From the UHGV virus genome UHGV-0150765: a DNA stretch of 13,996 nt. The stretch is one strand, 5' to 3'. Numbering within the stretch: position 1 is the first letter of the stretch; each line of letters opens with the position of its first letter. The position numbers were made by a program, and so were the translations under genes. This document shows positions 6,092 to 13,825 of this stretch, piece after piece. The notes under the pieces were generated by a model that saw only the letters and a program-made list of their open reading frames with translations, had not been told where the DNA came from and made no database searches. The stretch is from a virus.

Positions 6092-7105
6092 TCATTTATA
6101 ATAACTTCGGTGGTTTTCAAGATAGACCTTCTCAAGGAAGTCATCCCAGAAACTCATGTCTACTTTTTGCTGCATACCGTTCTTAGAAGCTTCAGTAGAT
6201 GCTGCTTCTACTTGATCGACCACATCTTCCAAAAACTCTTGAACCGTTTTAAATGGATGTTTACCCAACTTCACGTCGAGAATAAATGGAGCATCTTGGA
6301 GTGGATAAATCAAGTCGCCAGTTTTGTAAATTTCCAATAGTTGAAGTCCACCACGACAAGCATGACTCAGAGCTTTCCAGTCAATACCTTCATTGGCTTC
6401 AGCCTTACGAGCACGTTCACCATATTCAGCATCTAATTTGTTCAGTGACTGCTTAAGCTCAATAAGAGAAAGCGTTGTCTGATATTTACGACCCAACACA
6501 GTGTAGAACGTTTGTGGGCCTGTTTTCTCATGATTATGGAACACCCATTCACAGAATTCGTTTTCTGGAAGACGATGCTTAATATCTTCAACTTTAGTGC
6601 GACGCTGCTTAATAGAACCATCTTCTTGGTAATCAACCCATTGCTCAGGGATTTGATTAACTACTTTCAATACATCACGTAATGCAGCCAAACGAGAACC
6701 CTTGACACCGTATTTAGAAGCTTGCTTACGGACATATCCTAAATATGATTTCATGTTAGTCGTATAAAAACGAGAACGGTTGTCTTGAATAAACTTCCAC
6801 ACATCAGGCAAATCAGATTTAACCACTAGTTCAGGTGGAGTGTGAAGCATATCTAATGCTACAGTTTCACCATCTGCTGCTAATTTAAAGAAATATTTAA
6901 GACTGTATAGTTCATGGTCAATATCATCTTTAGTGTTTTTAGATGATGTGTTGTTAGTGTTTTTACTCATGTGCTCTTTGACATTTCCGATAAGAATATC
7001 GCGAGCAGGAGGAACAAAGATTTCTTTAAAATCTACATCAGATTCTGGGGTAGAAGTTCCATAAAGATGACTACCAAAATAGCTTTTCATTACTGTTTTC
7101 ATCAT
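6092..7105 (-). CDS. pol-beta superfamily nucleotidyltransferase-like protein, 337 aa
   Basis: N-terminal FGSHLYGTSTPESDVDF fits the minimal NTase signature G-S-x3-G-x5-S-D-x-D. A possible third acidic residue lies in VALDMLH. ATG at 7105 overlaps the upstream stop (ATGA). A UUCG terminator follows immediately. Confidence 0.75.
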   Translation of the reverse strand: MMKTVMKSYFGSHLYGTSTPESDVDFKEIFVPPARDILIGNVKEHMSKNTNNTSSKNTKDDIDHELYSLKYFFKLAADGETVALDMLHTPPELVVKSDLPDVWKFIQDNRSRFYTTNMKSYLGYVRKQASKYGVKGSRLAALRDVLKVVNQIPEQWVDYQEDGSIKQRRTKVEDIKHRLPENEFCEWVFHNHEKTGPQTFYTVLGRKYQTTLSLIELKQSLNKLDAEYGERARKAEANEGIDWKALSHACRGGLQLLEIYKTGDLIYPLQDAPFILDVKLGKHPFKTVQEFLEDVVDQVEAASTEASKNGMQQKVDMSFWDDFLEKVYLENHRSYYK

Positions 7106-7575
7106 TCAGCCTTATATTCAATAACAGGACATACTTTAGCTTTACGAGCTTTTAAAAATTCAACGATAATCGATTTCTTGGGTTGAATAGGAGGTAAACC
7201 TTTATACGCCCTATCAATATTTTCTATGTGTAAAGCATAATCCTTTTTCCATTTATAATCTTTATATTTTTCATGCAAATGTGCAGGAATAACAAATGAA
7301 CCAATAATAAGTAAAACAAGCAAAATGGCAAGTATAAATGCTGATGGAATAAGAGTCCATAAACTACCAAAAATAAGCCATTTCTGTATGATTTCTGCGC
7401 AGATGATAGTTAGACCTGCGAGTATAGTACATCCGAAAAAAGAAACGAAAAATGTAGGGATAACAATAGACCAAAAGTATGCACACAGTGTCTTAGGTCG
7501 TTTCCATTCGTCGTTAAACAGTTTGAATAATTTATAGTGCCAAGAGTTTTCATTAATAACCATAATTATAATCAT
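7102..7575 (-). CDS. integral membrane protein, 157 aa, at least two TM segments
   Basis: Hydrophobic stretches FWSIVIPTFFVSFFGCTILAGLTIICAEI and LIPSAFILAILLVLLIIGSFVI. ATGA overlaps with the genes on both sides. A second in-frame ATG at 7563 is an alternative start. Confidence 0.75.
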   Translation of the reverse strand: MIIIMVINENSWHYKLFKLFNDEWKRPKTLCAYFWSIVIPTFFVSFFGCTILAGLTIICAEIIQKWLIFGSLWTLIPSAFILAILLVLLIIGSFVIPAHLHEKYKDYKWKKDYALHIENIDRAYKGLPPIQPKKSIIVEFLKARKAKVCPVIEYKAE

Positions 7576-8093
7576 CCTTTCATTGAAGGTGTAACGTATG
7601 TTAAATACTTAATCATAGCCTCAGCTTCTGATTTTGACAATGAAATTTCTTCACCGTTTTGGCGAATAGAAACAAAATCTGGATGACGGTCACCGCCAGC
7701 CTTTAAAACACACATGTAAGTATCAACTTCGCCTTCAATATTTGAAATGATTGAAGCAGTTCCACATGAATGTGGTTGTTGATAAACTAATACAGCTTTT
7801 CTTCCACCGTTTGACTGTTCATAAACTTTTAACACATCAAACAAATCACTTCTTTTATCAATAGCTAAGATGTTGTTTTCATCTTCAATATTAAATCCTT
7901 CGGATACTTCATAAAGTGTCACCCATAAATCACCAATATCAATAACAGCGTTCACTTTTCCATGACTTTCAAGAGCATTACAAATTTTCTTAATTTCATC
8001 ATAACTCATTTTAATAATATCATCTCCTTGAATAAGGAAGATGTCATTTTTAAATTCAACACGAATTAAACCACTTCCACTTGAAATAAACAT
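7572..8093 (-). CDS. hypothetical protein, 173 aa, paralog of the adjacent 185-aa protein
   Basis: ATG at 8093-8091 with GAGGAAA SD. Shares GFNIE and a C-terminal SxxEAxAxxxYLxxVxPxM motif with 8100..8657. Confidence 0.8.
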   Translation of the reverse strand: MFISSGSGLIRVEFKNDIFLIQGDDIIKMSYDEIKKICNALESHGKVNAVIDIGDLWVTLYEVSEGFNIEDENNILAIDKRSDLFDVLKVYEQSNGGRKAVLVYQQPHSCGTASIISNIEGEVDTYMCVLKAGGDRHPDFVSIRQNGEEISLSKSEAEAMIKYLTYVTPSMKG

Positions 8094-11185: not shown

Positions 11186-11371
11186 TTAAAGCGTATTCAC
11201 ATAAGCTATTAATTCGTTTTCTTTCTTATCAAACCGATCAGCAAATTCTTCTTGCTGTTCGGGAGATAGCGGGCCATATTCATCATAAAAGGTGTTTGCT
11301 TCTGTATGCTCATCTAGAAGTTCATGGATAAGCTCAAACAATTTATCTTTTTGTTCTTTACTCAGACTCAT
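11186..11371 (-). CDS. hypothetical acidic small protein, 61 aa
   Basis: ATG at 11371-11369 overlaps the upstream stop (ATGA). Highly acidic (D/E-rich). Confidence 0.6.
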   Translation of the reverse strand: MSLSKEQKDKLFELIHELLDEHTEANTFYDEYGPLSPEQQEEFADRFDKKENELIAYVNTL

Positions 11372-11541
11372 ATATTAATTTCCAGGAGTTTTAAAATAAT
11401 TCGCTTTTGCTTAAATATTTCCATAGTTAAATGACCAGTATCTTTTTGACCGATTCCAATGGCAAAACCTTTATTGACAGCGAGTTCAATTAAATTATCA
11501 AGCTCACGTAACACTTCATATTGTAACTCAAAACTATTCAT
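11368..11541 (-). CDS. hypothetical small protein, 57 aa (MNSFELQYEVLRELDNLIELAVNKGFAIGIGQKDTGHLTMEIFKQKRIILKLLEINI)
   Basis: Hand-translated; not in the track. ATGA overlaps at both ends fill the gap between the flanking genes exactly. Confidence 0.5.
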   Translation of the reverse strand: MNSFELQYEVLRELDNLIELAVNKGFAIGIGQKDTGHLTMEIFKQKRIILKLLEINI

Positions 11542-11744
11542 TTTGGTTTACCTTCTTTAACGAAATCAGGATAAGGATAAAATCCTGAATAAAATCCTTC
11601 ACCTTTATGATTGATGCATCCTTTATTAGAACAATAGCACCAATAATCGAAATTACAAGCCATTTCATCGTTGCATAAAGCAAAAACAACCGGCCATTTA
11701 CACTTTTCACAGTGGGCATTTTTAAGAATACTAGTTTGGCTCAT
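11538..11744 (-). CDS. small Cys-rich protein, 68 aa, putative zinc-binding (CxxC, C, C, CxC, C)
   Basis: Seven Cys in MSQTSILKNAHCEKCKWPVVFALCNDEMACNFDYWCYCSNKGC. The ATG at 11744 is preferred over 11750 because AAGGTGA sits 7 nt upstream and it forms an ATGA overlap with the upstream gene. Confidence 0.65.
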   Translation of the reverse strand: MSQTSILKNAHCEKCKWPVVFALCNDEMACNFDYWCYCSNKGCINHKGEGFYSGFYPYPDFVKEGKPK

Positions 11745-11953
11745 AACCATGTCACCTTTAAGCAGTATTCTTCTACATGCTGTTTACGACCTTTCTTATC
11801 AATAAAGGTATATTCAACGAATGTTCCAATGTAGTCTTTATCTACATCATGTGGACTATTAATTGGACATTTAGTACGACAAATGCGTTCCCATTGACGA
11901 ATAATTACTGCCTTATTCTTTGGGTCATATGGATGTGGATAATGTATATTCAT
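11741..11953 (-). CDS. hypothetical small protein, 70 aa
   Basis: Track ORF starts at TTG. ATG at 11953-11951 overlaps the stop of the macro-domain gene (ATGA). Confidence 0.6.
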   Translation of the reverse strand: MNIHYPHPYDPKNKAVIIRQWERICRTKCPINSPHDVDKDYIGTFVEYTFIDKKGRKQHVEEYCLKVTWL

Positions 11954-12417
11954 AATAATGGTTCCCAATCAACAATCACAATTTCTAATTTAGAAGAATA
12001 TGTATCTAAAATATCTTCAATAATATCCCAGTTCCCTTTACCTATGCCTGCACCAATCCTAGGCATATAGATTGTAGGTTTAGTCAGTTTATTTTCACCA
12101 AACTCATTTAATTCTAACATACAATTCATTAAAGCGGAATACTCAAAATTTGGCCCTGGTTGAAATTGAGTATAAAGATTAAAGCAGTAAGCTTTATGAG
12201 TCCTAAAGTATTTTTCATAGACTGAGTAAGAACCGAGTTTAGTTACATCACCCCATTCAGTCTGTAATTTATCAGCTTCCAAAATTTTAGGGAAAGCTTT
12301 GGTTAATTGACCCGCTACGCCTGAACCCATAGTATGAAAACAATTGCATCCATGCGCAATATTTTTACCTTCAGCGAAAAGGGCGACAATATCGCCCTTG
12401 ATATATTTTACAATCAT
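11950..12417 (-). CDS. macro-domain protein (TARG1/Poa1p-like ADP-ribose binding or hydrolase fold), 155 aa
   Basis: IKGDIV ... IAHGCNCFHTMGSGVAGQL ... IYMPRIGAGIGKG matches the OARD1/Poa1p-type macro layout: an HxxxxC...MGAGIA-like motif plus a second glycine-rich loop. ATG at 12417 overlaps the upstream stop (ATGA). Confidence 0.7.
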   Translation of the reverse strand: MIVKYIKGDIVALFAEGKNIAHGCNCFHTMGSGVAGQLTKAFPKILEADKLQTEWGDVTKLGSYSVYEKYFRTHKAYCFNLYTQFQPGPNFEYSALMNCMLELNEFGENKLTKPTIYMPRIGAGIGKGNWDIIEDILDTYSSKLEIVIVDWEPLL

Positions 12418-12761
12418 CTAGTACTCAATCCTCGATTATAAGAATCTACCAAACGGTCAACCATTGAATGACAAGCGGCTTTATCTTTCTCCTCCGCAAC
12501 TGAGCATTCTAAGGTATTCCACTTTTTAGCATATCGTTTTAACAATGTATCGTTTTTGTATCTGCTTGATTTATCTCTTTCTCCGTCTTTATATGCATAT
12601 ATTAATTTCTGTGCAAATTCAGCTTGGCACGCTTTATTTTTCCCACAATAATCTGCCGCAGTGCGGTTTACATATTCTCTAATTTCAGTATATGATGTAT
12701 CTGCTGATGCAGAAGCAGAAAATGAAATTAATCCTATACATAAAACCAAAATTTTAGTCAT
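12414..12761 (-). CDS. small secreted protein with four Cys, 115 aa, in the position of T4 vs
   Basis: N-terminal MTKILVLCIGLISFSASASA is a typical Sec signal peptide (AxA site). Four Cys in the mature part. Start overlaps the transglycosylase gene by 8 nt. Confidence 0.65.
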   Translation of the reverse strand: MTKILVLCIGLISFSASASADTSYTEIREYVNRTAADYCGKNKACQAEFAQKLIYAYKDGERDKSSRYKNDTLLKRYAKKWNTLECSVAEEKDKAACHSMVDRLVDSYNRGLSTR

Positions 12762-13299
12762 TTACTATTTCCAAAAGTTTATTATTTTTAAGGTAATTAG
12801 CCTTTTCTAGGACTTCAGAAGCATATTTAGAACCAGCTTTAACATTCCATCCCGAATTATAAGAGGATATTGCTTTTCTTATATCGCCCTTATGTATATT
12901 TAACCAATAAGAAAGTTCAATGTACGCCCAGGAAGCTGAATTGGATCGTTTATTCAACATTCTTTTTATTTCAGCATCGGTCATATTATAACCAAGTTCC
13001 TTAACTCTCGCTCGCATAGTAGGCAAATAATTTTGGAACATTCCATAGGCGTGATGCTTTGGTTTAGATTTTAAATTAACTCCGCCAGAGCTTTCTTGCC
13101 ATAAAATGGCTGCCATTATATGACCTAATCCACTCTTGTGGATGTTTTTGTGTGTTTTATATTTTCCATCCTTAGAAAATTGTTCCCCGAATTGATACGC
13201 GTAACGCATGTTATCGAGTTGGACATTACTGAAAGTATGCTCGGAGCTATGTGCCATCATTGAAATGGCCAATAGACCAGCGAGTAGTGCTTTTCTCAT
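12754..13299 (-). CDS. periplasmic lytic transglycosylase-like (SLT domain) protein, 181 aa, in the position of T4 vs.1
   Basis: Signal peptide MRKALLAGLLAISMMAHS, then SLT motifs: catalytic QESSG (E-S), YGMFQ (GLMQ-like) and SYNSGWN (AYNxG-like). ATG at 13299 with GAGGT SD. Confidence 0.8.
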   Translation of the reverse strand: MRKALLAGLLAISMMAHSSEHTFSNVQLDNMRYAYQFGEQFSKDGKYKTHKNIHKSGLGHIMAAILWQESSGGVNLKSKPKHHAYGMFQNYLPTMRARVKELGYNMTDAEIKRMLNKRSNSASWAYIELSYWLNIHKGDIRKAISSYNSGWNVKAGSKYASEVLEKANYLKNNKLLEIVND

Positions 13300-13795: not shown

Positions 13796-13825
13796 ATTAT
13801 ACCACAGTCAAGAGGAAAAGTAAAC
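13796..13825 (-). promoter_or_regulatory. T4-type early promoter for regB
   Basis: Minus strand GTTTAC (13825-13820), 18-nt spacer ending in TGG, TATAAT (13801-13796). Confidence 0.75.

Follow-up and report, generated by a model that had tools for sequence, protein, structure and literature searches.

Tk.4 of a T-even phage is a stand-alone ALC1-like macrodomain with glutamine at the catalytic lysine position

The tk.4 locus

The window analyzed here, which is the whole 13,996-nucleotide stretch of the virus genome UHGV-0150765, carries the gene order regB - vs.1 - vs - tk.4 - tk.3 ... tk, with all of these genes on the (-) strand and in the same arrangement as in the T4 record AF158101, which confirmed the placement of a macrodomain gene in a tk-regB string that had been proposed in an earlier, sequence-only reading of this DNA. 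The best whole-window match was to Escherichia phage Ptacy1496 (96.8%) and hundreds of Tequatrovirus records matched at >95%; by these matches the window is assigned as a T-even segment from a relative of T2 and T4 that is not T4 itself. The gene and the features at its borders and upstream are as follows:

11950..12417, (-) strand: tk.4 (renamed adfM) coding sequence, an ATG-started ORF of 155 aa that encodes a stand-alone macrodomain
12414..12417, (-) strand: ATGA at which the stop codon of vs overlaps the start codon of tk.4, as seen in the sequence
11950..11953, (-) strand: ATGA at which the stop codon of tk.4 overlaps the start codon of tk.3, likewise seen in the sequence
13796..13824, (-) strand: candidate early promoter of the regB-vs.1-vs-tk.4 string, sigma-70-like (TTTACT-17-TATAAT with TG), a consensus match only (10/12)

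Judged by its sequence, the ORF at 11950..12417 is tk.4 of a T2/T4-like phage. Its DNA is 98.3-98.5% identical to tk.4 of T2 and T4, and its product is identical to T4 Tk.4 at 153 of 155 residues, with the two differences from T4 (T112I and D135G) both lying away from conserved positions. The T4 protein, Tk.4/AdfM, is thus the product of the same gene with the same neighbors (vs upstream and tk.3 downstream). The ATGA overlaps at both ends of tk.4 suggest that its translation is coupled to that of its neighbors, and the tk.3 product, when counted from the overlap ATG, is 100% identical to that of T4. The putative promoter lies just 5' of regB and had 10 of 12 matches in the consensus scan; when the region was scanned for promoters and terminators, the site counts were no higher than those in shuffles. 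A hairpin resembling a terminator (a stem of 8 bp, of which 5 are GC pairs, then a T-run) at 12379-12399 on the (+) strand, opposite the 5' end of tk.4, is probably a chance occurrence, as such sites were also not above shuffle expectation. There is published evidence for expression of the gene in T2, as the Tk.4 protein was detected in the proteome of T2-infected cells and the host sRNA ArcZ was found by RIL-seq to interact with the T2 tk.4 transcript, in a 2026 preprint in which tk.4 is mislabelled as a "putative thymidine kinase" (10.64898/2026.06.19.733364).

Two segments of the window differ from T4. The segment between tk and tk.3 (11186-11750, (-) strand) is a small variable cassette adjoining tk.4, in which T4 tk.1 has no counterpart. 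It consists of an ORF of 61 aa (11186-11371, DUF7438) that is only 54% identical to T4 tk.2, an ORF of 57 aa (11368-11541) with no match in the T4 locus, and a gene for a Cys-rich "Phage zinc binding domain" protein of 70 aa (11538-11750, PF23895 at 2.9e-29), also with no T4-locus match. In addition, the T4 homing-endonuclease gene mobD is absent and is replaced by two ORFs between nrdC.11 and mobD.1 (7102-8093, (-) strand), the first encoding a predicted membrane protein of 157 aa (PHROG 944) and the second a y05I-like putative transcription factor of 173 aa (PF24449 and PF24448). This replacement is consistent with a presence/absence polymorphism of a mobile endonuclease.

[quoted passage not shown]

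Tk.4 matched the Pfam Macro model (PF01661) at 28.1 bits (GA 22, E=2.1e-6) over model positions 2-117 of 118, and PHROG 335, labelled "phosphatase", at 2.9e-66. An alignment of 60 homologues with 33-97% identity (A1) was used as input to AlphaFold2, and the resulting model (pLDDT 95, pTM 0.90) has the three-layer alpha/beta/alpha macro fold with Gly-rich ADP-ribose-binding loops that are typical of the superfamily, so that structure prediction bore out the macrodomain assignment at high confidence. A Foldseek search of the PDB with the model returned as its top matches, in order, human TARG1 (OARD1; 1.7e-9), yeast Poa1p (2.8e-9), Bt_1257 and then DarG macrodomains; Bt_1257, Poa1p, DarG and TARG1 were accordingly the closest solved structures, and the "TARG1/Poa1p-type" label given to the protein from its sequence alone was correct. 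As these nearest structural and sequence neighbors are all members of the ALC1-like class, and not of the MacroD-type, PARG-like or macroH2A-like macrodomains, Tk.4 is a stand-alone ALC1-like (TARG1/DarG/Poa1p/SCO6735-class) macrodomain.

The ADP-ribose pocket is conserved and has Gln84 in place of the catalytic lysine

Three conserved elements of Tk.4 were located in the window:

12304..12360, (-) strand: loop 1 / substrate-binding motif, residues 20-38 IAHGCNCFHTMGSGVAGQL, containing H22, C24, N25, C26 and G31-x-G33
12166..12180, (-) strand: N80-L-Y82-T83-Q84 motif, with Q84 at the catalytic-Lys position of TARG1 (K84) and DarG (K80)
12028..12063, (-) strand: phosphate-binding loop, residues 119-130 PRIGAGIGKGNW, with conserved P119, I121, G122, G124 and W130

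The first of these is the macro signature, and residues 121-128 of the third are the second loop, IGAGIGKG, that had both been proposed earlier for this 155-aa ORF; each was present in the translation exactly as quoted. Conservation was assessed in 260 relatives, which include the best 150 representatives of the 17,685 clusters (at 50% identity) that matched a Tk.4 family profile. The His/Cys/Asn and Gly-loop positions, on which the macrodomain assignment had been made to depend, were kept in 240-259 of these relatives. In loop 1, H22 was present in 247/260, C24 in 240/260, N25 in 259/260, C26 in 258/260 and G33 in 259/260, and the H-x-C-N-C motif that they form is common to Tk.4 and Poa1p. 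In the phosphate-binding loop, P119, I121, G122, G124 and W130 were invariant in A1 and present in 252-259 of the 260 relatives (259 for each of G122 and G124). The pocket residues N25, G31, G33, G122 and G124 are therefore conserved. Q84 and Y82 showed no exceptions, as they were found in 260/260 relatives and also in 80/80 bacterial loci, which had been retrieved with search patterns that did not contain the Q84/Y82 motif.

In TARG1, catalysis depends on a Lys84/Asp125 dyad and in DarG on Lys80 (PMC9411070). Tk.4 does not have the dyad, as Q84 occupied the Lys column and G126 the Asp column of TARG1 in three independent alignments (the HMMER profile against the PDB, a MAFFT alignment designated A2, and an hmmalign alignment of 266 sequences). 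The hmmalign alignment set the phage PhiKZ macrodomain protein gp104, which is considered below, two columns off register at its FPTK motif, and for that protein the gp104-DarG alignment and MAFFT A2 were used instead. The residue aligned with N25 is Asn in DarG (within TVNxVG) and Ser in TARG1. The Asn equivalent to N25 is needed for activity in two characterized proteins, based on the SCO6735 mutant N27S (PMC9411070) and the PhiKZ gp104 mutant N23A (PMC13309987). We considered whether K127 of the IGAGIGKG loop might be a substitute catalytic lysine and rejected the idea because this position is Gly in 241/260 relatives. The signature of the Tk.4 family is HGCNC ... D49 ... N-x-Y-T-Q ... IGAGxxGGxW.

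Glutamine at the position of the catalytic lysine, held in position by the loop-1 Asn, is a feature of the subclass of ALC1-like macrodomains represented by SCO6735 of Streptomyces coelicolor (PDB 5E3B) and Bt_1257 of Bacteroides (PDB 2FG1/2AFC), both of which are Gln-type, and Tk.4 has both residues. The equivalence of Tk.4 Q84/N25 with SCO6735 Q85/N27 was derived by transitivity via TARG1 K84 and DarG K80 and from the N...Q of Bt_1257 in the HMMER alignment. Bt_1257 is the best match of Tk.4 by sequence and is also among its top structural matches, yet it is only 25-29% identical to it; Bt_1257 and SCO6735 are 54% identical to each other. The subclass is further defined by a mobile loop that is five residues longer than in DarG and TARG1 and carries Lys89/Lys94 (PMC9411070). 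This loop is absent from Tk.4; when Bt_1257 is aligned to the Tk.4 profile, it shows six extra residues (skglpp) just after the Gln. Furthermore, where SCO6735 has Lys34 in loop 1, Tk.4 has S32 and most of its relatives have Ala. These differences argue against a simple orthology of Tk.4 and SCO6735.

Tk.4 as an anti-DarTG2 factor

Both the macrodomain annotation and the anti-DarTG2 function of tk.4 are already known, from existing GenBank annotations and from a HIDEN-SEQ preprint of November 2025 (bioRxiv 10.1101/2025.11.20.689424). Many GenBank records label the ORF "macro domain protein", "Poa1p-like family protein" or "phosphatase". In the preprint, tk.4 was the sole significant T4 hit when a transposon library was grown on a host that expressed DarTG2; a clean deletion of the gene made T4 sensitive to DarTG2, and the gene was dispensable on plain E. 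coli K-12, being required only in the presence of DarTG2 (bioRxiv 10.1101/2025.11.20.689424). These authors renamed the gene adfM (anti-DarT factor Macrodomain), noted that the AlphaFold model of the T4 protein resembles the DarG macrodomain of M. tuberculosis, and wrote that it "seems likely" that the protein removes ADP-ribose from DNA enzymatically (bioRxiv 10.1101/2025.11.20.689424). T4 that lacks both adfA and adfN is still resistant to DarTG2 (PMC11825919), which implied a further factor, and tk.4 closes that gap. The suggestions in the sequence-only reading that the protein could counter a host ADP-ribosylating defense, and that its deletion might sensitize the phage to DarTG, are thus supported by the genetics of the T4 protein, which is 99% identical to the protein encoded in the window. 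What the sequence analysis adds is the Gln84 in place of the catalytic Lys, the short-loop Gln-type signature and the non-orthology of two proteins that are both named AdfM.

In the mechanism that we favor, Tk.4 would be made early in infection, within the regB-vs-tk string, and its role would be to neutralize the host DarTG2 toxin-antitoxin defense, in which DarT2 ADP-ribosylates thymidines in single-stranded phage DNA and blocks replication. Tk.4 would hold the ADP-ribose in its Gly-rich pocket and, most likely, hydrolyze the thymidine-ribose bond to restore normal DNA, by a lysine-independent, Gln-positioned and water-mediated chemistry of the kind proposed for SCO6735. We consider it quite probable that an early-made ALC1-like Tk.4 neutralizes DarTG2 in this way, with thymidine-ADP-ribose hydrolysis as the most likely route.

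A direct precedent for this mechanism is SCO6735, which has Gln85 at the position of the catalytic Lys and does not have either of the TARG1 catalytic residues, yet cleaves DarT-made dT-ADPr from DNA and protects cells from DarT (PMC9411070). Its Q85A and Q85E mutants are dead and N27S is nearly dead, and it has been proposed that the Gln positions the distal ribose while a backbone-held water starts the reaction (PMC9411070). Given this precedent and the invariance of Q84, a Gln-type, lysine-independent hydrolysis is favored for Tk.4, and we infer that protection occurs by enzymatic de-ADP-ribosylation and that the reaction would be dT-ADPr hydrolysis of the SCO6735 kind. TARG1 also removes dT-ADPr, with K84/D125 where Tk.4 has Q84/G126. 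Among phage proteins, the macrodomain gp104 of PhiKZ was shown in vitro to clear DNA of the ADP-ribose added by DarT2 (PMC13309987). Two features of Tk.4 count against the hydrolysis reading. It has neither the catalytic Lys of DarG and TARG1 nor the Asp125 of TARG1, and it has neither the long mobile loop nor the Lys34 of SCO6735, both of which are tied to DNA handling.

An alternative is that Tk.4 protects mainly without catalysis, either as a stoichiometric, antitoxin-like inhibitor of DarT2 or as a shield on ADP-ribosylated DNA. The catalytic Lys is missing from Tk.4, and dead forms of SCO6735 (Q85A), DarG (K80A) and TARG1 (K84A) all lower DarT activity in vitro, SCO6735 the most (PMC9411070). 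Since SCO6735 can inhibit DarT through interaction even when its catalysis is abolished, binding alone could protect. However, Tk.4 matches only positions 2-147 of the 338-position DarG model and has nothing that corresponds to the C-terminal domain with which DarG binds DarT. In addition, Q84, N25, Y82 and the Gly loops are strictly kept across the 260 divergent relatives and also in bacterial copies that stand alone, with no DarT neighbors. Such strict conservation of the pocket in copies that have no DarT beside them suggests that an active site, and not an interface specific for the toxin, is being conserved, and we regard protection mainly by binding as unlikely.

It is similarly improbable, in our view, that Tk.4 is mainly a small-molecule enzyme, such as a Poa1p-like ADP-ribose-1''-phosphate phosphatase or an O-acetyl-ADPR deacetylase, with the DarTG2 phenotype being secondary. 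Such an activity is suggested by the annotations, by the HxCNC motif shared with Poa1p and by the RNA-repair neighbors of tk.4 homologues in distant phages. Against this, the phosphatase and deacetylase names were transferred by homology, the sole experimental phenotype is specific to DarTG2, which is a DNA-modifying system, and the closest Gln-type relative with characterized biochemistry has ADP-ribose on DNA and on protein as its substrates.

T4 encodes three ADP-ribosyltransferases (ARTs) of its own, Alt, ModA and ModB. The Alt and Mod enzymes modify arginine, a linkage that ALC1-like macrodomains normally do not cleave. The presence of three ARTs in the same phage, and the fact that SCO6735 and TARG1 act on protein ADP-ribose as well (PMC9411070), lend some appeal to the proposal that Tk.4 erases or tunes marks made by these enzymes, RNAylation included, and the sequence-only reading had offered tuning of the phage's own ADP-ribosyltransferases as one option. 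This part of that reading we judge to be very unlikely, as the Alt/Mod marks are arginine-linked and tk.4 is dispensable in the absence of DarTG2; in addition, relatives of Tk.4 occur in many phages and bacteria that have no Alt/Mod homologues. The hydrolysis of thymidine-ADP-ribose is the favored explanation, and if Tk.4 is hydrolytic without a catalytic lysine, a very large family of phage proteins would share the lysine-independent mechanism seen in SCO6735.

Tk.4 is distinct from DarG and from the AdfM of PhiKZ

The resemblance to DarG was examined against the structures from T. aquaticus (5M31/5M3E) and M. tuberculosis (5M3I) and against two DarG models. Tk.4 scored 30.1 bits against the NCBIfam DarG equivalog NF048014, for which the cut-off is 250 (the two proteins differing in length, ~338 aa versus 155 aa), and 34 bits against the PADLOC DarG model. 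The C-terminal DarT-binding domain of DarG is absent from Tk.4, and the Lys80 of DarG lies in an FPTK motif, in place of which Tk.4 has LYTQ, with the Gln shared by all 260 relatives. DarG is also encoded with darT, whereas the neighbors of tk.4 in the window are vs and tk.3, with no darT. Tk.4 is not a DarG orthologue.

PhiKZ gp104 is also a stand-alone phage macrodomain that acts against DarTG2 and was independently named AdfM (Cell Rep 2026, PMC13309987). In contrast to Tk.4, it is a true DarG-type protein, with 132.9 bits to the PADLOC DarG model, a match to 5M3I at E=9e-25 and an FPTKDNW motif that includes the Lys. BLASTP between PhiKZ gp104 and Tk.4 aligned only a 23-aa patch (E=0.004). 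Since the two proteins fall in different macrodomain subgroups, separate recruitment is probable, that is, the two AdfM proteins were probably acquired by their phages independently. That T4 Tk.4 and PhiKZ gp104 share a name and are not orthologues matters for annotation transfer. DarTG is a common anti-phage defense, and knowing which phage genes cancel it aids the prediction of host range and the engineering of phages.

Distribution and origin of the Tk.4 family

Relatives of Tk.4 were detected by tblastn in 2,780 of 50,697 phage records (~5%), including T4-like phages, FelixO1-like phages, Ackermannviridae and phages of Pseudomonas, Campylobacter, Vibrio, Acinetobacter and Bacillus. Two homologues from nominally bacterial MAGs (Bacilli and Culicoidibacterales) were considered as a possible cellular source and rejected; both are on T4-like phage contigs with Rnl1, a Dda-like helicase, PNK and dCMP deaminase, and so they are no evidence of a bacterial origin. 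True chromosomal relatives that have the HGCNC / NxYTQ / IGAGxxGGxW signature were confirmed at 524 loci at least, and are common in Rhodobacteraceae, Desulfobacterales, cyanobacteria, Bacteroidota and others.

The possibility that these chromosomal relatives are DarT-linked orphan antitoxins was rejected, as there was no recurrent DarT among the best 25 of 74 neighbor families beside the 48 loci with full flanks, and DarT was thus at most a singleton in the immediate neighborhood. The immediate neighbors were heterogeneous, with NADAR found three times and an ADP-ribosylglycohydrolase (ARH) once, the others being unrelated housekeeping genes, and this heterogeneity, with no recurrent DarT, is consistent with descent from housekeeping macrodomains that stood alone and not from DarTG operons. 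In T4, a NADAR protein (AdfN, anti-DarTG1) likewise occurs together with the Tk.4 macrodomain (anti-DarTG2); bacteria too may have paired, base-specific DNA de-ADP-ribosylases (NADAR and Tk.4-like).

A wider reading, which we advance tentatively, as a real possibility rather than the expected outcome, is that Tk.4 represents a third group of thymidine-ADP-ribose DNA hydrolases with a distinct mechanism, of a short-loop Gln-type with the signature HGCNC / D49 / NxYTQ, which T4-like and many other phages would have recruited from widespread stand-alone bacterial housekeeping macrodomains and not from DarG antitoxins. If so, Tk.4 would be independent of the DarG-type AdfM of PhiKZ, and it might have a broader range of substrates (protein Glu/Asp-ADPr and RNA-ADPr) and thereby blunt other ADP-ribosylating defenses.

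In the distant T4-like contigs (L002, at 41-2397, and L003), the neighbors of the Tk.4 homologue are not vs and tk but an Rnl1 RNA ligase, PNK and a DUF4326 protein. This RNA-repair neighborhood could indicate an RNA- or nucleotide-linked ADP-ribose substrate or could be mere early-gene shuffling. Vs.1 of the window (12754-13299, (-) strand), which is encoded two genes upstream of tk.4, has an SLT lytic transglycosylase domain (PF01464 at 25.1 bits versus a GA of 21.3) and a signal-like hydrophobic stretch at its N-terminus, and a gene with an SLT domain is also present near the Tk.4 homologue in one of the distant contigs (L003, at 7387-7893).
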